From: Haliotis rufescens
Taxonomy: Eukaryota
Direction of reading: 5' to 3'
Assembly: GCF_023055435.1 (NCBI RefSeq)
Contig: NW_025963913.1
Span: 13,144,001 to 13,208,000, forward strand
DNA: 64,000 nt
This document shows, piece by piece, positions 42,101-64,000 of this stretch (positions are counted from its first letter, which is position 1; each line of letters opens with the position of its first letter). Position numbers and translations under genes: made by a program. Under the pieces are notes generated by a model. The model was not told where the DNA came from. It did not search any database and worked only from the letters and a program-made list of their open reading frames with translations.

Positions 42101-45100
42101 CTATATTGTATATATACCTCCTGTACCACCACAGCATGAAACTGTTTCCATGACATCCTGTAACTGTATCCACGACATCCTGTAACTGTTCCACAACAGA
42201 CTGTAACTGTATCCATGATATCCTGTAACTGTATCAACGACAGCCTGTAACTGTATCCACGACATCCTGTAACTGTATCCACGACAGCCTGTCACTGTAT
42301 CCACGACATCCTGTAACTGTATCCACGACAGCCTGTAACTGTATCCTCGACATCCTGTAACTGTATCCACGACAGCCTGTAACTGTATCCACGACAGCCT
42401 GTAACTGTATCCACGACAGCCTGTAACTGTATCCATGATATCCTGTAACTGTATCAACGACAGCCTGTAACTGTATCCACGACAGACTGTAACTTTATCC
42501 ACGACAGTCTGTAACTGTATCCACGACATCCTGTAACTGTATCCACGACAGCCTGTCACTGTATCCACGACATCCTGTAACTATATTCACGACAGCCTGT
42601 AACTGTATCCACGACATCCTGTAACTGTATCCACGACATCCTGTAACTATATTCACGACAGCCTGTAACTGTATCCACGACATCCTGTAACTGTATCCAC
42701 GACATCCTGTAACTATATTCACGACAGCCTGTAACTGTATCCACGACATCCTGCAACTGTATTCACGACAGCCTGTAACTGTATCCAAGACATCTTGTAA
42801 CTGTATCCACGACAGCCTGTAACTGTATCCACGACATCCTGTAACTGTATCCACGACAGCCTGTAACTGTATCGAGTAACAATCCAATGACTGGAAACAC
42901 GGGCAACGAGCCATAGGGGTGACATGACATATAAAGCTGCCCCCAGTACGACACACATGACTCACTAGGGACCTGCTCTGACCCGGTACGAATGCAACTC
43001 AAGAACCTATGTCCTGGTCAGATGAAATGTTCAGTGGTTTGAAAGATGATCCAAACTTGCTGATTCCTCCCAAGATTGCAAGAAAAGATACTATTGTATA
43101 CAGGACAAAACCCCAGTACATATGAAGTATTATATTCTGATATAAGGTACAAGGTGTCAAAATTAAATGCCACTCACGAACCAAGCTCTGTTCTTTCACA
43201 ACCAATAATACCTTCCGGCAATTAACACCGATCTGAATAGGAGCTCCTAGAGTCCTGGTATTTCTGATTGGCAACTGACTCTAACCAATTCTTGCTATAT
43301 AAACTGAGTTCTCTCTATCGCTTCTTAAGTCCACGACCCCAAGTGTCCTGGAGCCGCGCCGACGGATCCATGCTGAACTTAACACGAAGTAAATTTGGAC
43401 CAGGAAACCATGAGATTCGAATCGAGAAGCTGGAGGAGGCTGATACAGGAGTGTACATGTGTACAGGGAGCCAACAGGGAACCAGGCCCCTCACAAGGAC
43501 ATTCACAGTGGACGTAGAAGGTAGGGGTAAATGATAGTTAACAAGACATTCACAGTGGACGTAGAAGGTAGGGATAAAATATAGTTGACAAGGACATTCA
43601 CGGTTGGCGTAGAAGGTAGGGATAAAATATAGTTGACAAGGACATTCACGGTTGGCGTAGAAGGTAGGGATAAAATATAGTTGACAAGGACATTCACAGT
43701 GGACGTTGAAGGTAGGGATACAATATAGTTGACAAGGACATTCACGGTTGGCGTAGAAGGTAGGGATAAAATATAGTTGACAAGGACATTCACGGTTGGT
43801 GTAGAAGGTAGGGATAAAATATAGTTGACAAGGACATTCACGGTTGTTGAGAAGGTAGGGATAAAATATAGTTGACAAGGACATTCACGGTTGGCGTAGA
43901 AGGTAGGGATGAAAAATAGTTGACAAGGACATTCACGGTGGGCGTAGAAGGTAGGGTCAAAATATAGTTGACAAGGACATTCACGGTTGGCGTAGAAGGT
44001 AGGGATAAAATATAGTTGACAAGGACATTCACGGTGGGCGTAGAAGGTAGGGTCAAAATATAGTTGACAAGGACATTCACGGTGGGCGTAGAAGGTAGGG
44101 ATAAAATATAGTTGACAAGGACATTCACGGTGGGCGTAGAAGATAGGGTTAAAAATAGTTAGCAAGGACATTCTCAGTGGACATAGAAGGTAGGGATAAA
44201 ATATAGTTGACAAGGACATTCACGGTGGGCGTAGAAGGTAGGGATAAAATATAGTTGACAAGGACATTCACGGTGGACGTAGAAGGTAGGGATAAAATAT
44301 AGTTGAAAAGGACATTCACGGTGGACGTAGAAGGTAGGGATAAAATATACTTGACAAGGACATTCACGGTGGGCGTAGAAGGTAGGGTTAAAAACAGTTA
44401 GCAAGGGCATTGTCAGTGGACATAGAAGGTGGGGATGAAATAAAGTTGACAAGGACATTCACGGTGGACGTAGAAGGAAGGGATAAAATATAGTTGACAA
44501 GGACATTCACGGTGGGCGTAGAAGGTAGGGATAAAATATAGTTGACAAGGACATTCACGGTGAGCGTAGAAGGTAGGGATAAAATATAGTTGACAAGGAC
44601 ATTCACGGTGGACGTAGAAGGTAGGGATAAAATATAGTTGACAAGGACATTCACGGTGGGCGTAGAAGGTAGGGTTAAAAACAGTTAGCAAGGGCATTGT
44701 CAGTGGACATAGAAGGTGGGGATGAAATAAAGTTGACAAGGACATTCACGGTGGACGTAGAAGGAATGGATAAAATATAGCTGACAAGGACATTCACGGT
44801 GGACGTAGAAGGAAGGGATAAAATATAGTTGACAAGGACATTCACGGTGGGCGTAGAAGGTAGGGTTAAAAATAGTTAGCAAGGACATTCTCAGTGGACA
44901 TAGAAGGTAGGGATAAAATATAGTTGACAAGGACATTCACGGTGGGCGTAGAAGGTAGGGATAAAATATAGTTGACAAGGACATTCACGGTGAGCGTAGA
45001 AGGTAGGGATAAAATATAGTTGACAAGGACATTCACGGTGGACGTAGAAGGTAGGGATAAAATATAGTTGACAAGGACATTCACGGTGGGCGTAGAAGGT

Positions 45101-48100
45101 AGGGTTAAAAACAGTTAGCAAGGGCATTGTCAGTGGACATAGAAGGTGGGGATGAAATAAAGTTGACAAGGACATTCACGGTGGACGTAGAAGGAAGGGA
45201 TAAAATATAGTTGACAAGGACATTCACGGTGGGCGTAGAAGGTATGGATAAAATAGTTGACAAGGACATTCACGGTGGACATAGAAGGTAGGGATAAAAT
45301 AGTTGACAAGGGCATTCACAGCGGACGTAGAAGGTAGGGATAAAATAGTTGACAAGGGCATTCACAGCGGACGTAGAAGGTAGGGCTAAAAGACACCATT
45401 GTGTAGAAGTTAGTTGTTTCTATGGATACATATTGTAACTGATGTTTATCAAAATAAATGCATTGAAACAGCATTCAATATGACCATTTTGTCAGCCTAT
45501 GAAAACATAATTTTTTTAATAGAAGAAATTTGTAGAAATCCACCCATCCTGTTCCAGCGGCGCCGACGTGGGTGACGGAGCCCAAAGACGTCACTGCTGA
45601 CGAGGGGGAAGACGTGGTGATAGACTGCCGGGCGGCAGGAACTCCCAGTCCACATATTGAGTGGCTTATAAATGGCATCCCACTGAGAGGTATGCTGAAG
45701 GTGACGTGCAGCTGGCTGATAGAATAGGGTGAAGGGGGCAGTAGGTACATGTACATGGAATACTGGGTGGTTTCTCAGAAATCTTTTTGTGTGGAAATTG
45801 GCAAGGCGAATTTGACATTTAAAAGCAGACTCAATTGTCCGATTCCGAATGTGTGGTAACGGATCACTATCAGAGCTAGTGATGATACCAGATGTTCACG
45901 AAAATGTGAGCGTATCCATCCATACCGACTGTGCCAAGGTGTGTGTTAACGACTCACCTTCAGTTAGTGATGATACCAGATGTTCATGAAAAGGTGAACG
46001 TATCCATCCATACCGACTGTATCACGGTGTGTTACCGACTCACCTTCAGTTAGTGATGATACCAGATGTTTACGAAAAGGTGGGCGTATCCATCCATACC
46101 GACTGTATCACGGTGTGTGTTAACGCATCACCTTCAGTTAGTGATGATACCAGATGTTCACGAAAAGGAGAGCGTATCCATCCATACCGACTGTATCACG
46201 GTGTGTGTTATCGACTCACCTTCAGTTATTGATGATACCAGATATTCACGAAAAAGTGGGCGTATCCATCCATACCGACTGTATCAAGGTGTGTCTTAAC
46301 GACTCACCTTCAGTTAGTGATGATACCAGATGTTCACGAAAAGGTAAGCGTATCCATCCATACCGACTGTATCACGGTGTGTGTTAACAACTCACCTTCA
46401 GTTAGTGATGATACCAGATGTTCACGAAAAGGTGAGCGTATCCATCCATACCAACTGTATCACGGTGTGTGTTAACGACTCACCTTCAGTTAGTATTGAT
46501 ACCAGATGTTCACGAAAAGGTGAGCGTATCCATCCATACCGACTGTATCACGGTGTGTGTTAACGACTCACCTTCAGTTAGTGTTGATACCAGATGTTCA
46601 CGAAAAGGTGGGCGTATCCATCCATACCGACTGTATCACGGTGTGTGTTAACGACTCACCTTCAGTTAGTGATGAAACCAGATATTCACGAAAAGGTGGG
46701 CGTATCCATCCATACCGACTGTATCACGGTGTGTCTTAACGACTCACCTTCAGTTAGTGATGATACCAGATGTTCACGAAAAGGTGGGCGTATCCATCCA
46801 TACCGACTGTATCATGGTGTGTGTTAACGACTCACCTTCAGTGAGTGTTGATACCAGAAGTTCACGAAAAGGTGGGCGTATCCATCCATACCGACTGTAT
46901 CACGGTGTGTGTTAACGACTCACCTTCAGTTAGTGTTGATACCAGATGTTCACGAAAAGGTGAGCGTATCCATCCATACCGACTGTATCACGGTGTGTGT
47001 TAACGACTCACCTTCAGTTAATGATGATACCAGATGTTCACAATGGGTGGGCGTATCCATCCATACCGACTGTATCACGGTGTGTGTTAACGACTCACCT
47101 TCAGTTAGTGATGATACCAGATGTTCACGAAAAGGTGGGCGTATCCATCCATACCGACTGTATCACGGTGTGTGTTAACGACTCACCTTCAGTTAGTAAT
47201 GATACCAGATGTTCACGAAAAGGTGAGCGTATCCATCCATACAGACTGTATCACGGTGTGTGTTAACGACTCACCTTCAGTTAGTGATGATACCAGATGT
47301 TCACGAAAAGGTGAGCGTATCCATCCATACCAACTGTATCAAGGTGTGTGTTAACGACTCACCTTCAGTTAGTGATGATACCAGATGTTCACGAAAAGGT
47401 GGGCGTATCCATCCATACCGACTGTATCACGGTGTGTGTTAATGACTCACTTTCAGTTAGTGTTGATACCAGATGTTCACGAAAAGGTGGGCGTATCCAT
47501 CCATACCGACTGTATCACGGTGTGTGTTAACGACTCACCTTCAGTTAGTGATGATACCAGATGTTCACGAAAAGGTGGGCGTATCCATCCATACCGACTG
47601 TATCACGGTGTGTGTTAACGACTCACCTTCAGTTAGTGATGATACCAGATGTTCACGAAAAGGTGAGCGTATCCATCCATACCGACTGTATCACGGTGTG
47701 TGTTAACGACTCACCTTCAGTTAGTGTCTATACCAGATGTTCACGAAAAGGTGGGCGTATCCATCCATACCGACTGTATCACAGTGTGTGTTAACGACTC
47801 ACCTTCAGTTAGTGATGATACCAGATGTTCACGAAAAGGTGAGCGTATCCATCCATACCGACTGTATCACGGTGTGTGTTAACGACTCACCTTCAGTTAG
47901 TGATGATACCAGATGTTCACGAAAAGGTGGGCGTATCCATCCATACCGACTGTATCACGGTGTGTGTTAACGACTCACCTTCAGTTAGTGTTGATACCAG
48001 ATGTTCACGAAAAGGTGGGCGTATCCATCCATACCGACTGTATCACGGTGTGTGTTAACGACTCACCTTCAGTTAGTGATGATACCAGATGTTCACGAAA

Positions 48101-51100: not shown

Positions 51101-54100
51101 TTTGTCAGAGGATTTATACAAGTTACCGTTTGAACACTGATTTGAAATTTGGTGGATGTCTTCATGTAAGCGAGGTAGGGTTACTGTTTTGTTGGACGAA
51201 GAAGATCAATTAGATGGTTAAACCAACAGTGGGTAATGAAGGGACTGATTGGTATCCGTGTCACAGTGTTGCCACGGGAACAATGTCTGTAAGTCAATGT
51301 TGTGGGTTTTTCAGAAAGCCATGATGAGAGATGGTGGTCTGTTCAAGTGTTTTGTACGGAACAAATACGGCGAGGACAACAGTAAATATACAGTAATCAT
51401 TAGAGGTAAGTCATTCACTGAAGTCCTTAATTGTCATGGTGCATTTCATATGCGTATTAACCAGATGACTGTACACGGCTTGTGGCCACACCTAGAGAAC
51501 GATGTTTACAAGGAAACACGTTGGGAACAGTGTTTCAGTGCGTTCCATATCGAATCCCTGGTTCGGGGACAAAGAATAAATGCGGACTTGGTGCTTAAAG
51601 CCGATCAATGATTTGTCAATCTTTAGGAGTTGTTATTGAGACTAGATATTTTATCAGCTACAGCTGCAAAACCAGATGGGTTTTTTCACTTACTACAATG
51701 AGCCAAACAATTTTTATGGCAGCCGAATTTCTATTTTGACAACTATATAAAGCATGATTGTTTTTTCAAGAATTTTCGGGAACAATTTATTTTGTTCGAT
51801 AAAATCACAGCCCACCATCACCACCCCAACCCCCGTCAAAATATCAAATGATCTACCCCTTAGTTATATGCATTACTAACGTTGAAGCACCACCTACAGA
51901 AGCTTATCGTTGAGCTGGAGTTGCATCTGTTCAGCAACCTATCTACCGGTTCTAACCATATACGGGGCGGTGGGGTAGCCTAGTGGTAAAGAATTCGCTC
52001 GTCAAGGGTTCGATTCCCCACATGGGTACAATGTGTAAAACCTATTTCTGATGTCCATTTCTGGAATATTGCTAACAGCGGCGCAAAACCATACTCACTC
52101 ACTAACCATATATCATCAGGTTATGCCTTGATCCACTCCCTTTTCAGATCCAACACGGATTGTGCACGGTCCTAAGGACGTGTCTGTGCGGACCGGGCAG
52201 GATGCAGTGATGGAGTGCAAGGCTGCTACTGACCCTGCTGAGGTGAACAACCTCCGCTATGAGTGGAAGAAAGACAACACAACGCTGGACTTCACCAATC
52301 CTCAACTGAACCGACAGAACGGGAGGCTAGTCATCACAAAGGTAGCATTGGCAGATACAGCTGTGTATAAATGCGTGGCAACCAACGGCATAGACTCCGT
52401 CGTGGCGACTGCACGTTTGCTGGTTCAGGGTAAGGAACACNNNNNNNNNNNNNNNNNNNNNNNNNNNNNNNNNNNNNNNNNNNNNNNNNNNNNNNNNNNN
52501 NNNNNNNNNNNNNNNNNNNNNNNNNNNNNNNNNNNNNNNNNNNNNNNNNNNNNNNNNNNNNNNNNNNNNNNNNNNNNNNNNNNNNNNNNNNNNNNNNNNN
52601 NNNNNNNNNNNNNNNNNNNNNNNNNNNNNNNNNNNNNNNNNNNNNNNNNGAGCATTCATATGTACACACACATAACCAGAGCGGTTTTTTATGAGAGTTC
52701 GTGTTTAGTAAGTAGTGCAGGTCGTAAGCTGTGACATTCAATTCAAACACTGGTTTGCCATGTACTGTGTTAGCAGTGGTCATACACTTTTCCCGATTTA
52801 AAGTACTGTACACTCTGTGTTATTTGACGCCACACTCAACAATGTTCAAGCTATATAACGGCGATCTTTATATAATCAATTCTTGAGCAGACAATCGCAT
52901 GGTTAAAATCATGAGCATCGATCCACGCAAATGGGATACGATGACATGCAACAACCAAGTCAGCGAGCCTGAACACCCGACTCCGTTAGCATAGTGACCT
53001 CTTAGGGCAAGTATGGGTTGCTGAAGACCTATTTTCTATCCGGACCTGCACGGGTTTCATGCAATATGAACATACAGTGTTAGATGAACACATGTCTTTG
53101 TAGAATCCCACCTGACGGTACGTCAGTAGCGGCAGTTAAATGAAGGAACGGTTCCGTTCTGGAAGATGCCGACAAGGGAACACATTCCTCACACAAACCA
53201 CAGGTCACCTTGGGTCATACCTACGCTCGTGGGTTTTACAAAAGTGGTAAACGTCTCAGACCTGCATCACTTCTTTCGATGTAGGACGATGCAAGTTTAA
53301 CGTTTAGCAGGGGCTTTTATCTTGAGCTTGCAAACATATTGGCAAGGGGAGAAACATAATGTACAAAGTTGTATGCAGGCTTCCTGGCTTGAATAACCCT
53401 TTCTCATATTATCCCCAACAGCACCCCCGGGCGAGCCTTCAAAAGTGACATTGTTACGTTGTGACGGAGATAGTGCAACTATAGCCTGGAAATTCAACAC
53501 TTCTCTGACCAACCACTCACCTCTGAAGAGATTTTTTGTGGAATACAGCACCGACTATGACCCAGGAAATTGGTACAAGATGAAAACAGTGGGGGCCAAT
53601 AAGCGTCAAGCCAAAGTGGAATTGTCGCCGTTTGGTTCGTACACCTTCCGTGTGAAAGCTGTGAATGAGATTGGACCCGGCCTTCCTAGTGCCCCTACGA
53701 TGAATATGTGTGAAACCCCCGAAAACAGGCCACCTTTCCACCCCAAGAAGGTGCACACAGTCACAGATACAACCAACGTCCTGGCGGTGGAGTGGGAGGT
53801 TAGTACAAGCCATGTGATCTGATGGGTGTTGGGTGATGGATGGGTTTCGGTAGTCTGTCACTCAGACACTTGAGAATAAATCCAGAAATGTTCCCAACTC
53901 TGGTCTAGAGAGATTTGGCAAGTCTAGATCGCTTCAGCCCTGAAATTAAGTAGTGTTCTTGGCTCCATTTGGATTTGATTTTATATTTTGTGGATATATA
54001 TTTTTGAATGAGATAACTTTATATCTGGGACTAAATGTTAGTCTAGGGTATCGGTACTGATATGGTGTTTGGGTGTTGCCTCTGTGTTCCGTTATGGCGA

Positions 54101-57100
54101 TGAAGGGTTTGGGAGGTTTAGAAATATATTCTATGGTTTGGTTAAGGCGATGGAAGGGTTAGAATTTTAGGGCTACGGTTGCAGTAGGGCTGTGTTGATG
54201 ATTAGAGTTAGGGTTTAGGTTAGAGTTACAGTGATGGTAGGGTTAGGTAAGGGTTTAGGCCCAGGTTGGGTGTTTTGGCGATGGTAGGGTCAGATTAAGG
54301 GCGAATGAAGGGTTTTGTGATGGTACAGGATGCGGTTTGGGGAGATATAGGGTCAGAGGGGAAACAGACATGTACATGGAAGAGCAAGTGAGCCTGAGGT
54401 CCCCCTGATCTGTTACAGCCGATGGCCCCAATTCAACACAACGGCCCCGGCTTCCACTACGTCGTCATGATCAGCAAGGTGGGCGACAACACTGTCCAGA
54501 GCTACATCCGTAACGACTCTTTCAAGGGCCGTTTTGATATACCGGTTGATGACGTCTACCAGCCCTACACCGTGACGGTCAAGGCCGCCAACCGTGTCGG
54601 GGAACCTCCACAGCTTGCCACTAGTCACATGGGCTACTCGGGGGAGGGAGGTGAGTGAGTGAGTGAGTGAGCGTTATGAACATCAACTATGTTGCCAGGT
54701 GCGCGACGGTGCAACGTCCATTGCGGTTCCTTTTGAACCATTTTGTACTTAAAAATTAGAGCAAAAAGAGGGTAAGTGTGAATTATTTGCTCTTCAAAAT
54801 ATCACCCTTTCTGTTTGTGCATTATACGTTTCCACATATGTTTCTACCATGCCGGACAAAAGCTAGCATAAATAGAATCACCTACAAATTAGGTGCCAAG
54901 GTGACCTGTGGTTTGTGTGAGGGTTGTGTTCCTTTGTCGGCATCTTCCAGAACGGAACCGTTCCTTCATTTAACTGCCGCTACTGACGTACCGTCAGGTG
55001 GGATTCTACAAAGACATGTATACAACAAACACTGTATGTTCATATTGCATGAAACCCGTGCAGGTCCGGATAGAAAATAGGTCTTCAGCAACCCATACTT
55101 GCCCTAAGAGGTCACTATGCTAACGGGGTCGGGTGTTCAGGCTCGCTGACTTGGTTGTTGCATGTCATCGTATCCTATTTGCGCGGAACACGCATCAACC
55201 AAGTCATCGAGCCTGACCACCCGATCCCGTTAGTCGCTCACGATGTTGTTTACAGATAGCCCTGATATAGCTGGGATATTGTTGAGTGTAGCGTTAAACA
55301 ACAAACAAACATAACGCATGTACATCATGTACTTGAGAATCGTCAGGGAAAACGTGGATCACGTCCTACACTTAAAAAAATGTTGACTCTGAGTTGCTTC
55401 AATCTTGTTTCAGTTCCATTGGTCTTTCCTGAAAATTTGACCCTGAGCGACTTTTCCCGTCTGGGTGAAGGACAAGCCGAACTCTCGTGGGTAGGGGTTG
55501 AAGACGACCCAGAATTGATTCGAGGGATGCTGCGCGGATACATGGTATTGCTTGGGGGAAGGTTGGTGGGGGTGGGGTTGGGGTGGGGTGGGGGTGGGGT
55601 GGGGGAAGGTTGGTGGGGGTGGGGTGGGGGTGATATGAGGTGCGGAAACGAGTGGGTGAGCTCGCCTGTAGATGGCATCTTTTGTCAAAGTACATAATAT
55701 TTACTGAACTACTCCTATGTTAAGAATCCCTATTTCTAAAGGACTTACCATGACATACGTACAAGGCAAGGTTATGGTGGGGTTTATTAAATAAGTTTAC
55801 CTATTCACCAAAAAATTGAAAAGCGTTTTATATGTGATCTTTTTCACTTTTTCGCAAGAATAGTTCTTCAGCAACCCATACCTGACCATGGACGGAAAGA
55901 GGCGACTATGCTTGTCGTAAAAGGCGACTAACGGGATCGGGTCGTCAGACTCGCTGACTTGGTTGATCCATGTCATCGATCCCATTGCGTGGATCAATGC
56001 TCATGGTGGTCAAGACTCGATTATTTACAGACCGCCGACATACAGCTGGAATGTTCCTGAGGGTGGCGTTAAACAACAAACAAACACACAAACAATAGTT
56101 TTCATTTGATAAACCATGGTAAATTGTATTGCAACTTGACACCATAGAACCAGTTAAATATACTCAGCATTACATAACATTACATTTTTGCTTCCCTGAC
56201 ATGTTGACTGTTAACTAGTTCGAGGTTAAACTGGTTCCGTACATTATCTTCATGGCTCTCCTGCAGATCCGATACTGGAAATCAGGGGACCCTGACAACG
56301 TGTTTGAAACGCTTATTCCACTCGAATCCACGGAAATATCTGGAACTCAAACAGTAGTCCGGAATTTGCCGATGTACTCCGATCTTCAGGCTGACGTCAC
56401 GGTCGTCAACACACATTTCAAAAGCATCGGCAGTAACGTCGTGAACTTCAGCACTCCAGAAGGAGGTATGTTAGAACAATATATTCATCTTCATCAAGAT
56501 GAAACCGTCATGTTTAATTTACCTGCCATCATCATTCATTGTCACACGCCACTTATAGTGACGTCGACCCGTGAAGATCCAGGTTAGAATAGGTCTTCAG
56601 CAACTCAATCCTGCCGTAAGAGGCAACTAACGGGATCGGGTGGTCAGGCTTGCTGACTTGGTTGATGCATGTCATCGTATCCCTGGATTGTCTAGTCGAC
56701 ACTTGATTGTTTACAGACCGCCGTCATAAGCTGGGATATTGCCGAGTGCAGCGTTAAACACAAAACACAGATTTTGAACACAGGAATCGCATTAGTGACA
56801 TCAGCTTTCTATATTGTTCTAAGGCTTTCATGTTTGTGAAAATATATACTGAACAACATAAGTTCCTGTGACATTGAATAAGATTTAATGCAAAGTTATG
56901 TTTTTTTACCAAATCTGAAACAATTTCGGTTTGCAACAGATAAAAGACTTCTGTAAGTGTTCAAATGGTTAAATTTGCCATACTGACTTCAGAAAATGCG
57001 TGATTTCATAAAAAAACAACATGAACATGCCAAAATGTCAATTTACAAATCAATAGCGCGTGTGTCCACCTCTTGTGCGATGCTAGCAACACATCTTCGT

Positions 57101-60100
57101 CTCATGGAATGGACCAGGCGTCGCACAAAGTCCTGTGGGATATCTGTCTATATCTGCTGGAGCATGTTTCGAAGTTCCTCGAGTGTCTGTGGAACACGTG
57201 GTTGATCATGACGTCGAAGGCGCCGATCCATCTCATCCCACATGTGCTCGATTGGTTAGATATCAGGGGAGCGAGCCGGCAAGGGGATGATATTCACGTT
57301 GTTTTGTCGAAGCGAATCCTGAACAAGTCCAGCAATATGAGGCCGGGCGTTGTCATGTTGAAAGGTAATGCCTGGGTAATGACGACGCAAAAACGGTAGA
57401 ACAGGGCCGATGATCTCGTCGCGGTAGCGCTGTCCATTGAGATTTCCCTCTACCACTATCAAACGGGTCCTCTGTCTTGCTGTAATCACTCACTCACTCA
57501 CTCTTGTCGATTATTGCCTACGCGTAGCTGCCACTCCGAGGATGGTCTCTGACTGCATTCGTCTGTTGCCAACGTTGCCATAAACACTAAATGTTTCCGT
57601 GGATGTTAAATTGTCTTGCAACACCACGTTGACTCGATCCTGCTTCAAGCATACCAATGGCTCGCAGACGCTCATTTTGGGACAGGCGTGGCATCTCGTA
57701 ATGTTGAATAATTGCGTAATTTTGTTGTTTTTCTGAGTGGTTGTTGTCAGCACGATGCTAAACAATGCTTATGGAATCCCGTTAACGCACATGTTTTTAT
57801 ACCCATTCTTGGGTAGTGAAATGCATGGGGCTTGCATAAAAGTCAATTTTTGCATGGAATGCATGCTTTTCTGTAGCAGTTGCGTTTTTGTGACTTCATT
57901 CCATACATGTACTACAATATTGAAAAACAAACTTTACTTGTTTGAAAAATACACTAAAATTTTGGTGTCACGGGAACTTTTGTTGTTGAGTATACATGGT
58001 AGTCGGCTACACAGATAGATAGGAAAGAGACGTGTGGGACACCGGGTGTATTTAAACTAAGAAGGTTCATCTGACCGACTCCTGTTCCCCGTTGACAGTG
58101 CCGGACCCCCCACAGTACATCAACGTACTGCACCGTGGGGCCATCCATTTCCTGGTAGACTGGGGGCGGCCGGAGAACACCAATGGGATTCTGACTGGCT
58201 ACAAAGTCGGCTACAGACTAAGTAAGTGCTTACACTGACATAAAGTTCCCGGTGATTGTCTTGTGTCGTTGACGTTCACCACTCTCAGAATGTTTTTTTC
58301 TAAATCTTATATGGATATGCATTTATGTACGACTTATCATGGACTTAACGGAACACCCATATTGATACTTTTGAAATATACATGGACCTTTTTCTCTCTA
58401 TCAAATATAACTTAATAAAGGACGGAGAAGGATAATGAACATCTAGAAATGTCAAATGTAATATTGATGGAAAACTTTGGTATGACGATTATCAAATATT
58501 TTCAAATAGCTCTTTTATTATCATCTTCCCGGAGCAAGGGAATTATCTGACTGTTAAAGTCAAGTTTCCACCCTTCCACTAGTCTGCAATTATGGAGTTA
58601 TATATTGGCTGGACTAACGAGTCTATGCATAGTGCAATTAAAATTGCGTAACGAAACGACATTCAATTCATGAACAACATAGGGACTTCCGTAAAGATTT
58701 CGGTCGAATGCAGGATTTGCACAATCTCAATGAAATCAAATCTTAGTTCTCGCTATCGCTCAACAAAACTAAGATCTGATTTTAATGAGATAGACAGATA
58801 TTTTCATGATCTTTTCATGTTTTTAATCAAGGTTCTCAAGTAATTTGATGTACTTTGCAAGGTAAGACCCATTTTCTGACAATAAAGATCTTGATTATCG
58901 ATCAGATTGTCTTGACTGGGCGCCACCATTTTGTTTGAATCAAATGCAAGTGATATGAGAGGTCGAATCTGATTGGTCAATAGGAGGGACATAGAAGGGA
59001 CATAACTCGTAATCGCCACTGGTCTCGCTTCGATCGAGCCACAAAATTGCAGCCTAGTTCGACAAGGGTGGAAAGTTGACTTTTATAGTCAGTTAACTCC
59101 CTTACCTCGGGAAGATGTTTTCTTATTTCCATGTGTAAGTTGGGAGTCCTGACATACAAAAATACGTACGTTTGGCTAAAAGTAGTGAAAAGGGACAATG
59201 GCTTGTTCATATTATCATATTAGTAAAGCGTTTCTTGAAAAAACTTTAAAGTCATTCTTTTCGATAATGTTTTATCCTTACCGATCGATACATTGAAAGT
59301 TGTTATAAGTCCAAAAATGCAAGTGTTGAAATGAACCAAGTCTGATTCTTTTTTATATAAAGACATTTGATAACATTCATAACGATTTTAAAGGTTTTTC
59401 TCATTCCTTGAATCAGAGACCGTGAAATAGTATCCACTTTATGGTCTCTGCTTGAATTATGCAGATCCTGTTTGTGAAAACGTCCCTTAAGTACCTTGTC
59501 CTTTGCTTAATCACAGATCTCATTTACAGACATTTATAAGAATTAGTGGCCATGCAATGACAGTGTTGTGTTTGCCACAGTGAACAGTACTCACACAGGA
59601 GATATGATGGTCCTGCCGGAGACCACGCGGCGACGCTCCTTCATCAAGGATCTCCAGCCCAACACGGAGTACCGCGTGTATGTCTGGGCACTGACGATGA
59701 AGGGTCCTGGTGACCCAATCTACATGGATGCGAAAACAGCCAAGAAGAACACGGGTAAAGTGTGGTGTTCTGTCCAATGTCTTAAGTTGGCACGTACAAC
59801 GTTCAGTGACAGTTCACATGCAGTGTTTCATCCTCAGTTATGTGTGTGTCCTGTGATATTTAATTATTTTCCTTCACATTTTGATTTGTTGTATTTATCG
59901 TATGGTGGAGTACATAAAACGTGTACTAAGTAGAAAATTAGTATATTGAACAGCCTCGTTGTGACAGCGCCGTCTGTTGGTTAAGAAATACCGGATGTTG
60001 GATGGTGTCTGTCTCATAGTGTAGACTTCTGTTGTGCGTGTAATGTATCTATAAACACGTTTCAGTTGTTATAATACATGGATTTCAGCTATAACAAAGC

Positions 60101-62378
60101 CACAGATTTTGGATATGGAGCCAACAGACAGAGCTGTTGAAATTACATGGGCTCTCAAGAACAGCTCTAACACAAGAGCCGCCGCTTATTACCTCCTACA
60201 ACACAAACTGTTGGGTAGGTTATACATAATGGTACAAACTGTTGGGTAGGTGATACATACATGGTACAAATTGTTGGGTAGGTGATACATACATGATACA
60301 AACTGTTGGGTAGGCGATACATACATGATACAAATTGTTGGGTAGTTGATGCAAACATGGTACAAACTGTTGGGTGGGTGATACATACATGGTACAAACT
60401 GTTGGGTAGGTGATACATACATGGTACAAACTGTAGTGTAGGTGATACATACATGGTACAAACTGTAGTGTAGGTGATAAATACATGGTACAAATTGTAG
60501 TGTAGGTTAAACATACATGATACAAACTGTTGGGTAGTAGATACATACATGGTACAAACTGTTGGGTGGGTGATACATACATGGTACAAACTGTAGTGTA
60601 GGTTAAACATACATGATACAAACTGTTGGGTAGTAGATACATACATGGTACAAACTGTTGGGTGGGTGATACATACATGGTAGAAACTTTTGGGTAGGTT
60701 ATACATACATGGCGCAAACTCTTGAGTAGGTGATACATACATGATACAAACTGTTGGGTAGGTGATACATACATGGTAGAAACTGTAGTGTAGGTGATAC
60801 ATACATGGTACAAACTGTAGTGTAGGTGATAAATACATGGTACAAACTGTAGTGTAGGTTAAACATACATGATACAAACTGTTGGGTAGGTGATACATAC
60901 ATGGTAGAAACTGTAGTGTAGGTGATACATACATGGTACAAACTGTAGTGTAGGTGATAAATACATGGTACAAACTGTAGTGTAGGTTAAACATACATGA
61001 TACAAACTGTTGGGTAGGTGATACATTCATGGTAGAAACTGTAGTGTAGGTGATACATACATGGTACAAACTGTAGTGTAGGTGATAAATACATGGTACA
61101 AACTGTAGTGTAGGTTAAACATACATGATACAAACTGTTGGGTAGTAGATACATACATGGTACAAACTGTAGTGTAAGTGATACATACATGGTACAAACT
61201 GTAGTGTAGGTGATAAATACATGGTACAAACTGTAGTGTAGGTTAAACATACATGATACAAACTGTTGGGTAGTAGATACATACATGGTACAAACTGTTG
61301 GGTGGGTGATACATACATGGTAGAAACTTTTGGGTAGGTGATACATACATGGTAGAAACTGTTGGGTAGGTTATACATACATGCCGCAAACTCTTGAGTA
61401 GGTGATACATACATGATACAAACTGTTGGGTAGGTGATACATACATGGTACAAACTGTAGTGTAGGTGATACATACATGGTACAAACTGTAGTGTAGGTG
61501 ATAAATACATGGTACAAACTGTTGGGTAGTAGATACATACATGGTACAAACTGTTGGGTGGGTGATACATACATGGTAGAAACTTTTGGGTAGGTTATAC
61601 ATACATGGCGCAAACTCTTGAGTAGGTGATACATACATGATACAAACTGTTGGGTAGGTGATACATACATGGTAGAAACTCCAGTGTAGGTGATACATAC
61701 ATGGTACAAACTGTAGTGTAGGTGATAAATACATGGTACAAACTGTAGTGTAGGTTAAACATACATGATACAAACTGTTGGGTAGGTGATACATTCATGG
61801 TACAAACAGTTGGGTAGGTGATACATACACGTTACAAACTGTTGGGTAGGTTATACATGCATTGAACAAACTGTTGGGTAGGTGATACATTCATGGTTCA
61901 AACTGTTGGGCAGGTGATACAAGCATGGTACAAACTGCTGGGTAGGTGATACATATATGGTACACACTGTAGTACAGGTGATGCATACATAGTACAAACT
62001 GTTGAGTAGGTGATACATACATGGTACAAACTGTTGGGAAGGTGATACATACATGGTACAGACTTGTGTAGGATTTTGAGAAGGCAATACATGCAAGTTT
62101 TAAGTTTGGGCAATTCAATTAACGGAAACATGAATGTCTATGTGATTGGTACTAACATCATGGTTGTGTGGTCGTGCAATACATGTGATATACCCGTGCA
62201 TCACCAGGGACCAATGCCTGGACACGCGGGGCGAAGGTAGAGGGCAACCGGTTCTCCCAAAGCGTGTATGGTCTTCATCCTCAGTCCACCTACCAGGCGC
62301 GGGTCGTGGCACTGGACAGTGGGCAGCGGGCTGTCAGTGACACAGAGCTGTTCAACACGGCCGAGAGAGAACGTGAGG
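37195..62378 (+). CDS. Nrg: L1-family cell adhesion molecule (neuroglian/L1CAM/NrCAM-like), 19 coding exons, ectodomain only; gene likely continues past the window
   Basis: Manual splicing gives an open frame of 3352 nt with matching phases at every GT-AG junction: signal peptide + 6 Ig + 5 FN3. Family-typical motifs include CNPP..VPN (Ig2), G.LYF, CIFGG.P.P (Ig3), AP.W..EP.D and QCNASNIHGYVWSD.YINI (Ig4), and PM.PIQHNGPGFHY...GYSGE (FN3-2). The symbol is a family-level call; orthology is untested. Confidence 0.88.
37468..37937. repeat. 31-bp minisatellite (~15 near-identical copies)
   Basis: Unit gaccggtacatgtacacacgtcgtccatctt. Confidence 0.96.
38295..38535 (+). mobile_element. SINE-like family A copy with 11-bp TSD
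   Basis: TSD acatattgaca at 38284-38294 and 38536-38546. Confidence 0.87.
38982..39081 (+). CDS. L1-like exon 2 (Ig1 N-half, PPVVANMSPKKRHFVEGERLKLPCEAQGQPIP)
   Basis: ttccag acceptor, gtgagt donor, Ig I-set C-x-A-x-G-x-P-x-P motif. Confidence 0.9.
39638..40020 (+). CDS. L1-like exon 3 (Ig1 C-half and Ig2 N-half)
   Basis: ttccag/gtaagt; encodes WLKSG...DAGYYQCRAENIHG...LRCNPPRSVPNARIVW. Confidence 0.93.
40382..40570 (+). mobile_element. SINE-like family A copy (degenerate)
   Basis: ccgggttagaataggtcttcagcaacccatgct...gctgacttggttgatgcatgtcatcg...caaac tail. Confidence 0.78.
40943..41625. repeat. 53-bp intronic minisatellite (~12-13 copies)
   Basis: Unit ctcacctttcctcctgcagcttaggttgaagaacgtattgaatcatcactgat. 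Confidence 0.96.
41723..41851 (+). CDS. L1-like exon 4 (Ig2 C-half, DLYFVSVREDEIKGDAEYACVAYNQITRSMTYGNSFRLKLQG)
   Basis: tttgcag/gtatgt, phase 1-1; LYF...YAC motif. Confidence 0.9.
41984..42086 (+). CDS. L1-like exon 5 (Ig3 N-half, KPVDEPMSLMWQTPAAMLGLQGKTLKMMCIFGG)
   Basis: ttgtag/gtgagt, phase 1-2; CIFGG motif. Confidence 0.88.
42140..42873. repeat. 22-bp intronic minisatellite (~33 copies)
   Basis: Unit ctgtaactgtatccacgaca(g/t)c. Confidence 0.95.
43330..43520 (+). CDS. L1-like exon 6 (Ig3 C-half)
   Basis: cttcttaag acceptor, gtaggg donor; encodes PRPQVSW...DTGVYMC...FTVDVE. Confidence 0.9.
43493..45390. repeat. 48-bp minisatellite seeded by the exon 6/intron junction (~39 copies)
   Basis: Unit acaaggacattcacggtggacgtagaaggtagggataaaatatagttg; the first copy overlaps the coding exon. 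Confidence 0.96.
45558..45689 (+). CDS. L1-like exon 7 (Ig4 N-half, APTWVTEPKDVTADEGEDVVIDCRAAGTPSPHIEWLINGIPLR)
   Basis: ttccag/gtatgc, phase 1-1. Confidence 0.92.
45851..49094. repeat. 88-bp intronic minisatellite (~37 copies)
   Basis: Unit ttagtgatgataccagatgttcacgaaaaggtgagcgtatccatccataccgactgtatcacggtgtgtgttaacgactcaccttcag. Confidence 0.97.
49690..49833 (+). CDS. L1-like exon 8 (Ig4 C-half)
   Basis: ctaacag/gtgggt; encodes DTMAVQCNASNIHGYVWSDTYINIL. Confidence 0.92.
49931..50204 (+). mobile_element. SINE-like family A, full-length copy with 13-14-bp TSD
   Basis: TSD acattgactatgt(g) at 49918 and 50205; (aaac)n tail. Confidence 0.9.
50626..50810 (+). CDS. L1-like exon 9 (Ig5 N-half)
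   Basis: tttctag acceptor (an alternative in-frame cag ends at 50637), gtaagt donor; encodes LHCHHTGHPVPDLVWFK...ENGSLLI. Confidence 0.9.
51315..51405 (+). CDS. L1-like exon 10 (Ig5 C-half, KAMMRDGGLFKCFVRNKYGEDNSKYTVIIR)
   Basis: tttcag/gtaagt, phase 0-1. Confidence 0.9.
51963..52103 (+). mobile_element. Short tRNA-derived SINE family C
   Basis: A box tagcctagtgg, B box ggttcgattcc, tail ctggaatattgctaacagcggcg...(actc)n. Confidence 0.8.
52148..52429 (+). CDS. L1-like exon 11 (Ig6)
   Basis: ttttcag/gtaagg; encodes PTRIVHGPKD...MECKAATDP...YEWKKD...DTAVYKCVATNGID. Confidence 0.93.
52441..52649. other. Assembly gap (209 N)
   Basis: Run of N just after the exon 11 donor. Confidence 0.99.
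52817..53055 (-). mobile_element. SINE-like family A copy
   Basis: Reverse-orientation match to the family; part of the left arm of an inverted duplication. Confidence 0.82.
53422..53798 (+). CDS. L1-like exon 12 (FN3-1 and start of FN3-2)
   Basis: caacag/gttagt; encodes IAWKFN...NHSPL...LSPFGSYTFRVKAVNEIGPGLPS...VEWE. Confidence 0.93.
54419..54650 (+). CDS. L1-like exon 13 (FN3-2)
   Basis: ttacag/gtgagt; encodes PMAPIQHNGPGFHY...YQPYTVTVKAANRVG...GYSGEG. Confidence 0.93.
55053..55310 (+). mobile_element. SINE-like family A copy, rearranged (contains an inverted internal fragment)
   Basis: 5' part mirrors 52922-53055; 55188-55238 is an antisense fragment of the same family; normal tail. 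Confidence 0.8.
55414..55544 (+). CDS. L1-like exon 14 (FN3-3 N-half)
   Basis: gtttcag/gtattg; encodes PLVFPENL...AELSW...IRGMLRGYM. Confidence 0.88.
55856..56094 (+). mobile_element. SINE-like family A copy
   Basis: agaatagttcttcagcaacccatac...ggcgttaaacaacaaacaaac. Confidence 0.83.
56267..56465 (+). CDS. L1-like exon 15 (FN3-3 C-half)
   Basis: ctgcag/gtatgt; encodes IRYWK...NLPMYS...SNVVNFSTPEG. Confidence 0.92.
56566..56769 (+). mobile_element. SINE-like family A copy (internally deleted)
   Basis: gacccgtgaagatccaggttagaatagg...gcagcgttaaacacaaaac. Confidence 0.83.
56847..57992 (-). mobile_element. Internally deleted Tc1/mariner transposon with transposase pseudogene
   Basis: TIRs tactgaacaacataagttcctgtgaca / tgtcacgggaacttttgttgttgagta flanked by TA. 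The minus strand gives the N-terminal HTH MPRLSQNERLRAIGMLEAG (ATG 57694) and the catalytic C-terminus FQHDNARPH...SPDI*PIEHMWD, with stops and the middle missing. Confidence 0.92.
58099..58221 (+). CDS. L1-like exon 16 (FN3-4 N-half, PDPPQYINVLHRGAIHFLVDWGRPENTNGILTGYKVGYRL)
   Basis: tgacag/gtaagt; W..P...NGILTGY FN3 motif. Confidence 0.92.
59581..59754 (+). CDS. L1-like exon 17 (FN3-4 C-half)
   Basis: ccacag/gtaaag; encodes IKDLQPNTEYRVYVWALTMKGPG. Confidence 0.92.
60089..60214 (+). CDS. L1-like exon 18 (FN3-5 N-half, ITKPQILDMEPTDRAVEITWALKNSSNTRAAAYYLLQHKLL)
   Basis: tttcag/gtaggt, phase 1-1, FN3 B-strand Trp; not in the ORF track. Confidence 0.85.
60203..62062. repeat. 32-bp minisatellite seeded by the exon 18/intron junction (~58 copies)
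   Basis: Unit acaaactgttgggtaggtgatacatacatggt; the first copy overlaps the coding exon. Confidence 0.96.
62208..62378 (+). CDS. L1-like exon 19 (FN3-5 C-half); 3' boundary uncertain
   Basis: caccag acceptor; encodes TNAW...VYGLHPQSTYQARVVA...FNT. Phase-1 donors at 62373 (gtgagg) or 62379 (gtacgt); read-through is open to 62830. Confidence 0.82.
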
Positions 62379-62903: not shown

Positions 62904-64000
62904 CAATATCTCAACTATGTCCATATCTCAACTATGCCAAATATCTCAATCATGTCCAATATCTCAGCCATGTCCAATATCTCAACTATGTTTCTAGCTC
63001 ATCCATGTCGAATATCTCGACTATGTCAAATATCTTAACTATGACCAATCTCTCAACTATGTCCAACATCTCAACTATGTCCAATATCTCAACTATGACC
63101 AATATCTCAACTATGTCCAATATCTCAACTATGTCCAATATCTCAACTATATCCAATATCTCAACTATGTCCACTCTCTCAACTATGTCCAACATCTCAA
63201 CTATGTCAAATATCTCAACTTTGACCAGTATCTCAACTACGTCCAATATCTCAACTATAAACAATATCTCAACTATGTCCAGTATCTCGACTATGACCAT
63301 TATCTCAACTGTGTCCAATATCTCAACTATGTCCAATATCTCAAATATGTCCCAGTATCTTAACTCTGTCCTAGTATCTCAACTATGTCCAGTATCTCAA
63401 CTATGTCCAATATTTCAACTGTGTCCAATATCTCAACTATGTACAATATCTCAACCATGTCCAATATCTCAACTATGTCCAATACCTTAACTATATAAAA
63501 TATCTCAACTATGACCAGTATCTCAACTATGTCCAATATCTCAGCTATGAACAATATCTCAACTATGTCCAGTATCTCGACTATGACCAATATCTCAACT
63601 ATGTCCAATATCTCAACTGTGTCCAATATTTCAACTATGTCCAATATCTCAACTATGAACAATATCTCAACTATGTCCAGTATCTCGACTATGTCCAATA
63701 TCTCAACTATGTCCAATATCTCAACTGTGTTTACTAGCTCATCTATGTCGAATATCTCAACTATGTACAATATCTCAACTACGACCAATATCTCATCTAT
63801 GTCCAATATCTCATATATATCCAATATCTCAACTATGTCCAATATCTCGACTATGACCAATATCTCAACTATGAGATATTGGACATGGTTGAGATATTGT
63901 ACATAGTTGAGATACTGGGACATAGTTGAGATATTGGACATAGTTGAGATACTGGGACATAGTTGAGATATTGGTCAACTATGTCCAATATCTTAACTAA
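62904..64000. repeat. 18-bp minisatellite with an internal inverted block; reaches the window end
   Basis: Unit tccaatatctcaactatg; reverse-orientation units at about 63872-63977. Confidence 0.95.

Follow-up and report, generated by a model that had tools for sequence, protein, structure and literature searches.

An inverted duplicate around two fibronectin exons of an abalone neuroglian-like gene: a likely promoter of exon circularization

Two coding exons of an abalone gene lie between the arms of a long inverted duplication, and the question raised by this arrangement is whether the arms influence how the exons are spliced. The arms were first noticed during a first-pass annotation of the window, the whole 64,000-nucleotide stretch of Haliotis rufescens DNA that was analysed. 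The left arm is in intron 11 (52922..53213, minus strand) and the right arm in intron 13 (54896..55187, plus strand). As that annotation had claimed, they are near-perfect reverse complements: 282 of 292 bases are identical (96.6%), with 10 mismatches and no indels, and a gap of 1682 nt separates them. Each arm comprises 158 nt of non-SINE sequence (53056..53213, minus strand, and 54896..55053, plus strand) and 134 nt that correspond to the 5′ half of a SINE. The exon map likewise places exons 12 and 13 (609 nt, phase 1 at both ends) between the arms, as had been proposed. The arms were also said to bracket the exon pair 'exactly'; the enclosure is real, but the arms stop 208 and 245 nt short of the splice sites and are not aligned to them.

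Judged by its sequence, the host is a neuroglian-like gene of the L1 family. The best relatives of its protein are molluscan neuroglians, exon 12 matches the FN3 pair of Drosophila neuroglian (1CFB), and six Ig domains precede FN3 repeats, as in other family members. Unlike other family members, the protein carries an additional Ig domain and ends in a hydrophobic tail, and it has neither a Bravo/FIGEY domain nor a FIGQY motif; a search of the host protein for PF13882 and FIGQY returned no match, and the sole stretch of strong hydrophobicity lies at its C-terminus. Canonical neuroglian and L1CAM are recognized by a transmembrane segment followed by a cytoplasmic, ankyrin-binding FIGQY/FIGEY domain, and the host is therefore better described as an L1-like paralog. 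Four plus-strand exons matter most here. Exon 11 (52148..52429), which encodes the sixth Ig domain, would supply the donor of a hypothetical skip junction, and exon 14 (55414..55544) its acceptor. Exon 12 (377 nt, 53422..53798) encodes FN3-1 and the start of FN3-2 and is the back-splice acceptor, whereas exon 13 (232 nt, 54419..54650) encodes the rest of FN3-2 and is the back-splice donor. Canonical splice sites mark the ends of the circle, with AG before 53422 and GT after 54650, and the flanking introns are short (992 nt for intron 11 and 763 nt for intron 13).

In considering how the duplication arose, we examined the copy number of its parts. The 158-nt non-SINE part yields two candidates and two matches in the 1.33-Gb genome. 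The same search applied to three background arms gave 767, 1997 and 95 candidates, and thus it does report multi-copy families. An ungapped scan of an 800-kb sample, which recovers the focal pair, found no two-copy duplication among 22 comparable inverted pairs, and all three background pairs that appeared unique in the sample belong to genome-wide repeat families. A transposon or MITE would have multi-copy termini, whereas the non-SINE flank has only its two genome matches. Rfam gave no match in the region at E values up to 0.1. Metagenome contigs held no match to a 25-nt flank pattern and no abalone locus; the FN3 loci that they did contain were 14 distant ones, with 30-36% identity.

The SINE portions are more informative about origin. 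On the left, the arm runs into an old, near-full member of an abundant family of SINE-like repeats (52818..53055, minus strand; 78.5% to the family majority), which continues beyond the arm end to 52818. On the right, the SINE 5′ half (55054..55187, plus strand) carries the private variants of the left copy and stops mid-SINE. It adjoins two pieces that do not carry those variants: an inverted 50-nt SINE middle piece (55188..55237, minus strand; 48/50 to the majority) and a SINE 3′ end (55246..55315, plus strand; 60/70 to the majority) that is a remnant of a separate copy. In a comparison set of 58 near-full copies that includes both arm copies, the SINE halves of the arms are 97.8% alike, versus 85.5% for the best other near-full copy, and have in common 12 substitutions from the family majority, which bears out the private variants reported at first pass. 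These variants and the two-copy flank also uphold the earlier view of a local duplication as opposed to two independent insertions. For the 3′ end at 55246..55315, 33 of the 58 copies (own locus included) match better than the left SINE does. An ancient whole-SINE duplication with only its core homogenized was considered and rejected, as the similarity of the right 3′ piece to the left SINE does not exceed that of typical copies. The Haliotis SINEs MESC and LP are described in the accessible portion of PMC4758252, and no divergence time for H. rufescens and H. discus hannai was found in the corresponding portion of PMC8557453.

This arrangement suggests a likely origin of the duplicate in DNA repair, with priming between two SINE copies of opposite orientation. 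On this view, the plus-strand SINE of intron 13 would have broken and then invaded its minus-strand counterpart in intron 11, after which one-sided ectopic repair would have copied the 5′ half of the intron 11 SINE, together with 158 nt of its flank, into intron 13. The left arm is the likely donor, because its SINE is continuous past the arm end and the right arm, the likely inserted copy, stops mid-SINE beside pieces of a different copy.

Misassembly, which the first-pass annotation had named among the points to check, does not account for the structure, since it is present in public DNA contigs of other runs and of a second species. At the right arm's inner junction, contigs extend at least 31 letters across in three of four runs and 30 letters in the remaining one; contigs into which the arms have collapsed reach two to three times the flanking depth in three of the four. 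Contig building merges bubbles, and for this reason we rejected the collapsed contigs as proof that the arms are identical within individuals. One organism, represented by run X12, carries a single mirrored change (54907 T>C with 53202 A>G) that keeps the base pair, and contig ends of run X5, read with the same merging in mind, imply the right-arm dinucleotide in the left arm. There is thus a hint of arm-to-arm conversion, occasional and short. In the first of these organisms, the mirrored change would sit at a CpG, so that parallel decay can explain it. A bias towards G-U wobbles among the arm mismatches was not significant (4/6 transitions, p = 0.34) and was rejected as a sign of selection.

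Reverse-complementary sequences are present in both introns flanking exons 12 and 13, and among the 190 intron pairs of the gene, scored for intron 11 over the part that does not read N, introns 11 and 13 form the strongest (490 bits versus 199 for the next). A predicted minimum free energy fold pairs 285 of the 292 arm bases and loops out both exons, with a calculated duplex energy of -577 kcal/mol. A local hairpin predicted at 55120-55237 (-79.5 kcal/mol), in which the inverted SINE middle piece pairs with 55120-55165, could draw the right arm's SINE half away from this duplex. ADAR editing of the duplex, which the first pass had also raised, is putative. Work on human cells, fly and worm, as given in the accessible portions of PMC4201285, PMC4617980 and PMC8330042, reports that flanking complementarity suffices or is needed for circle formation; the first of these papers gives 30-40 nt as sufficient.

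A published listing of circular RNAs from H. discus hannai muscle (PMC11764893, Table S1) supports, for the ortholog, the back-spliced exon 12-13 circle that the first pass had envisaged. The entry novel_circ_0009817 consists of a 377-nt exon, a 608-nt intron and a 232-nt exon, and was recorded in six of six samples with 12, 17, 48, 7, 10 and 8 junction reads (102 in total). Circles found in all six samples occupy 9 of 53 rows in one part of that table. All eight exon lengths given or implied by the table match the present gene, including those of exons 12 and 13. Intron 13 is 778 nt in H. discus hannai versus 763 nt here, leaving room for the right arm, and we infer that the arms are present in that species. 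Two further circles from the gene are listed. One spans exons 16-19 (58099..62378, plus strand, 594 nt spliced) and serves as an internal control; it occurs in six of six samples, with 142 junction reads versus 102 for the exon 12-13 circle and 212 non-junction reads versus 899. The other, spanning exons 12-19, has two reads in one sample and fits a SINE pair in introns 11 and 19, the third-ranked inter-intron pair. The main text of PMC11764893 contains no occurrence of 'neuroglian', 'flanking' or 'reverse complementary' and does not mention the circle, whose identifier occurs once in the supplement and is hence absent from the differential tables. No paper joining abalone, circRNA and neuroglian was found in the literature covered, which lay outside subscription journals and bioRxiv supplements.

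Taken together, we favour with moderate confidence the view that this is a repair-derived inverted duplicate whose arms, predicted to pair with each other in the pre-mRNA, likely help exons 12 and 13 to back-splice, probably as an unselected by-product. Pairing of the arms would loop out the two exons and favour back-splicing into the circle tabulated for H. discus hannai, to which we infer that the duplex contributes causally. Several points count against this explanation. The more abundant exon 16-19 circle of H. discus hannai has no such repeat in this genome, where a search for an inverted match between introns 15 and 19 found none. Circles present in all six samples are not rare, the exon 12-13 circle comes from another species, and the local hairpin could compete for part of the right arm. 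In addition, linear splicing may be fast because the flanking introns are short.

The strongest competing account, which we regard as rather unlikely, is that repair left the duplication as a neutral scar and that the arms play no part in forming the exon 12-13 circle, just as the exon 16-19 circle appears to form without such a repeat. The calling of 11,744 circles in H. discus hannai muscle is in keeping with this account, as is the indirect nature of the case for arms in that circle-bearing species. Against it, the best of the 190 intron pairs flanks one of the two reproducible circles and the third-best flanks the third circle, while a 292-bp duplex is far above the length reported as sufficient.

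It is doubtful that the arms have been selected, with conversion, as a splicing switch whose product is an isoform without FN3-1/2, a circle with a function, or an FN3 polymer made by rolling-circle translation. Skipping exons 12 and 13 would keep the frame, as the first-pass annotation had calculated, and the 609-nt circle has, as also claimed, one stop-free frame of 203 codons with internal ATGs (six Met), the other frames having 10 and 12 stops. Its length is a multiple of three and it holds a start codon, so putative rolling-circle translation would be compatible with its sequence; the occurrence of arms in two species and the mirrored, pair-keeping change also speak for selection. However, such frame symmetry is common here: six of the eight two-exon blocks among exons 11-19 are divisible by three and the exon 16-19 circle is likewise stop-free, so that the open loop is unremarkable. 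The predicted skipped isoform, lacking residues 607-809, was seen neither in eight full-length abalone sequences nor in the best-listed 120 of 193 matches. Annotation misses minor isoforms; a skip of exons 18-19 is annotated in three species. The loop has no signal peptide, and the missing wobble bias, the CpG setting of the mirrored change and the absence of the circle from the differential tables further weaken the case.

A bolder version, which we hold to be a long shot, is that a SINE repair accident created a de novo circle/skip switch, kept paired by conversion across North Pacific abalones, with part of the gene's output diverted to a circle whose stop-free frame would give an FN3-1/2 polymer, or to a receptor shorter by two domains. 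If so, the birth and maintenance of a circRNA could be read across species with and without the arm. It is very improbable that the arms serve at the DNA level as sites of recombination by which exons 12-13 become inverted in certain haplotypes or cells. Inverted arms of 97% identity could recombine, and the contig ends hint at exchange between them. Yet the exons stand in gene orientation in the window, an inversion would take two domains out of the gene's main product, and among the joints listed for four DNA runs none joins the unique flanks in inverted order, collapsed contigs being unable to phase the arms. An assembly error or transposon terminal inverted repeats can scarcely be credited, for although the apparently unique background pairs all proved to be repeat families, the flank here is two-copy, the SINE on the left runs on unbroken past the arm end, the right arm's inner junction is spanned by contigs, and the collapsed arm contigs have the raised depth given above.

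The preferred reading, promotion of the circle by a repair-derived duplicate, involves a mechanism of a known kind and indicates no new one, and any function of the circle is putative. Most such layouts come without RNA evidence, whereas a public table for a related abalone already lists the circle predicted at this locus. The gene also offers a built-in comparison, with one circle that has a strong repeat and one that does not; with a datable, locus-specific origin, this makes complementarity-driven circles in molluscs testable across abalone species.

Several known systems resemble this locus. In mouse Sry, a locus-specific inverted duplication likewise surrounds a circularized coding region, but the Sry repeats are many kilobases long and its circle is a major developmental isoform, whereas the abalone arms are 292 nt and function is putative. 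In zip-2, intronic complementarity around frame-compatible exons similarly predicts both a circle and a skipped transcript; in zip-2, however, the conserved matches of 7 and 13 nt proved necessary on deletion, whereas the abalone match extends over 292 nt and the isoform sequences covered include none with the skip. For the human ZKSCAN1 and HIPK3 circles, the accessible portion of the source describes SINE-containing inverted repeats, short in human, that flank circularized exons (PMC4201285); the abalone arms differ in descending from one SINE copy plus flank and in being 96.6% alike. The Drosophila laccase2 exon-2 circle, as described in the accessible portion of PMC4617980, is also from an invertebrate and has inverted repeat-derived sequences near both splice sites of the circularized exon. 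Its repeats are DNAREP1_DM copies in long introns and their role has been tested, whereas at the abalone locus causality is putative, the arms lie in short introns, and a single local duplication gave rise to both of them, with two-copy sequence making up more than half of each.

The two arms, in intron 11 (52922-53213, reverse strand) and intron 13 (54896-55187, forward strand), occupy the positions given in the first-pass annotation and are reverse complements of each other over 292 nt, without gaps and with 10 mismatches. The 1682 nt between them carry exon 12 (53422-53798, 377 nt) and exon 13 (54419-54650, 232 nt). Each arm combines 158 nt of non-SINE sequence with 134 nt belonging to an abundant SINE-like repeat, namely its 5′ half; in the two arms these SINE portions face outward, in opposite directions. 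The non-SINE half matches at two places in the 1.33-Gb genome, which are the arms themselves. The SINE halves are 97.8% identical to each other, against at most 85.5% for the other members of a set of 58 near-full copies drawn from 884 kb, and they share 12 substitutions relative to the family majority. The two-copy flank, the SINE identity and the shared substitutions together indicate that both halves derive from one ancestral locus, in agreement with the earlier proposal of a local duplication. The arms do not qualify as terminal inverted repeats of a transposon.

Misassembly of one arm had been named as a possible objection. DNA contigs from 4 of 24 listed public runs (three from organism A and one from organism B, a second species; four separate studies) argue against it: contigs from the exon 13 side reach 68, 30, 37 and 68 letters into the right arm, and in three runs a collapsed arm contig is two to three times as deep as the adjacent contigs (32.9, 35.8 and 68.9). 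In X7, one of these runs, the left inner junction is not crossed among the contigs listed. The N stretch of intron 11 sits outside both arms and is uninformative on assembly. The inverted duplication is real. Because the arms differ from each other by 3.4%, and organism B from the window by about 0.9% (unique contigs listed), the duplication is older than the split between organisms A and B.

The frequency of such pairs was estimated from 16 blocks of 50 kb on five contigs, chosen non-randomly at round coordinates, by an ungapped scan for inverted pairs that were 100 nt or longer, at least 93% identical and no more than 10 kb apart. Twenty-two pairs were recovered, 20 of them made up entirely of sequence that recurs at other places in the sample; the remaining two, together with one 90-nt pair found at a looser threshold, belong to genome-wide families (767, 1997 and 95 candidates). 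None of the 22 is a two-copy inverted duplication, which sets an upper bound of about 4 per Mb. Inverted repeats as such are common in the H. rufescens genome, and locus-specific ones are uncommon. Elsewhere, at G000:C1:50027908-50029681, 138-bp inverted termini mark a young family of high copy number, with 99% identity and many pairs spaced by about 5.5 kb, that is likely an active DNA transposon.

The simplest account of the right arm would be invasion by a broken SINE followed by copying. On the left, the SINE runs beyond the end of the arm as far as 52818. On the right, the arm breaks off mid-SINE; next come a 50-nt SINE piece in inverted orientation (48/50 agreeing with the majority) and a SINE 3′ end whose similarity to the left copy does not exceed that of typical copies. 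A separate plus-strand SINE may first have been present in intron 13 and have broken, possibly at the 46-bp hairpin formed by the inverted piece. Invasion by its end into the opposed SINE, some 2 kb upstream, would have followed, with the 5′ half of that SINE and 158 nt of flank being copied before rejoining. One-sided repair of such a type is known; no literature precedent closely resembling the proposed SINE repair was found.

Contig ends also hint at exchange between the arms. In run X5 the right-flank contig stops after 30 nt of arm sequence, and another contig, 206 nt long and with two differences, begins at the left boundary; the implication is a left arm that bears the dinucleotide of the right arm at 53185-53186. 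At that position X12, the organism B run, has the same left-arm letters as the window. In organism B a mirrored change is present in both arms (54907 T>C and 53202 A>G, on separately anchored contigs). This variant creates a CpG, so the pattern at this site could also have arisen by parallel decay in organism A, without exchange.

Among the 190 intron pairs of the gene, 12 have any inverted match, and introns 11 and 13 rank first (490 bits; next pair 199 bits). In the predicted fold of 52650-55413, 285 of the 292 arm bases pair in register, and the duplex closes the loop 208 nt upstream of the exon 12 acceptor and 245 nt downstream of the exon 13 donor. At 55120-55237 a local 46-bp hairpin (-79.5 kcal/mol) is predicted between the inverted SINE piece and the right arm, and could draw part of that arm out of the long duplex; the folding z of intron 13 is -6.4. 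The 18-bp minisatellite array of intron 19 (62904-63978) reverses its orientation around position 63872, and a large imperfect fold-back results.

The peptide of exon 12 is identical to part of an H. rufescens protein named neuroglian-like by NCBI; residues 607-809 of that protein come from exons 12 and 13. As exon 12 aligns from its beginning with the Drosophila neuroglian FN3 pair 1CFB, the exons correspond to FN3-1 and FN3-2, as previously assigned. In at least two abalone species the gene (37195-62378 and the adjoining stretch L068) encodes six Ig domains, FN3 repeats, one extra Ig domain and a C-terminal hydrophobic tail, and the FIGQY domain is absent. The Bravo/FIGEY domain of its molluscan relatives is missing from the protein, which ends in the hydrophobic tail. 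By its domain content the host is an L1-like paralogue rather than canonical neuroglian, and its product is possibly lipid-anchored. A second gene in H. discus hannai is likewise labelled neuroglian. Intron 6 contains a minisatellite of about 48 bp (43493-45391) comprising dozens of copies of the exon 6 3′ end, including its GT donor.

The exon 12-13 circle foreseen by the first-pass annotation is tabulated for the orthologue in H. discus hannai, the evidence being rows of Table S1 of PMC11764893, not sequencing reads. That survey covered adductor muscle of six animals, with RNase R and find_circ according to its methods. Its novel_circ_0009817, in a neuroglian-annotated gene, comprises a 377-nt exon, a 608-nt intron and a 232-nt exon and was recorded in all six samples, with 12, 17, 48, 7, 10 and 8 junction reads and 116, 128, 213, 202, 150 and 90 non-junction reads (totals 102 and 899). 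The gene is taken as the orthologue because all eight exon lengths stated in or implied by its four rows (377, 232, 199, 123, 174, 126, 171 and 327) agree with exons 12, 13 and 15-20. Intron 13 measures 778 nt in H. discus hannai versus 763 nt in H. rufescens, of which 292 nt are arm, and this agreement favours presence of the right arm in the former; introns 12, 15 and 17 differ by at most 15 nt and introns 16, 18 and 19 by more. In one part of the table, 9 of 53 rows are present in all six samples, so the circle is reproducible yet ordinary.

A causal link between arms and circle is weakened by the exon 16-19 circle, which also occurs in all six samples (142 junction and 212 non-junction reads; PMC11764893 Table S1): an inverted match between H. 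rufescens introns 15 and 19 was sought and none was found; intron 19 is, however, not of the same length in the two species. This circle (58099-62378, 594 nt) is the gene's most abundant in H. discus hannai and, like the exon 12-13 circle, has a stop-free frame. Two further circles, of exons 12-19 and 16-20, have 2 reads in one sample each (PMC11764893); the former fits a SINE pair in introns 11 and 19, the latter no pair.

The predicted exon 12-13 loop would be stop-free with internal methionines, as the first-pass annotation said, with 6 Met in the open frame. Skipping of both exons would keep the frame, as the first-pass annotation stated, but the isoform lacking residues 607-809 is absent from all 8 full-length sequences of three abalone species; 6 of the 8 two-exon blocks among exons 11-19 keep the frame. 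Among the 120 top-ranking of 193 matches to residues 480-940, no additional close relative appeared. Skipping of exons 18-19, which lie within the exon 16-19 circle, is annotated in all three species.

On balance we favour, with moderate confidence, a repair-derived inverted duplication that likely promotes back-splicing of exons 12-13, probably as an unselected by-product. The abalone locus has the sequence features of the class of repeat-flanked circles, and the orthologous circle is listed in the relative H. discus hannai. Its layout would function like the laccase2 (PMC4617980), zip-2 (PMC8330042) and ZKSCAN1 (PMC4201285) loci.
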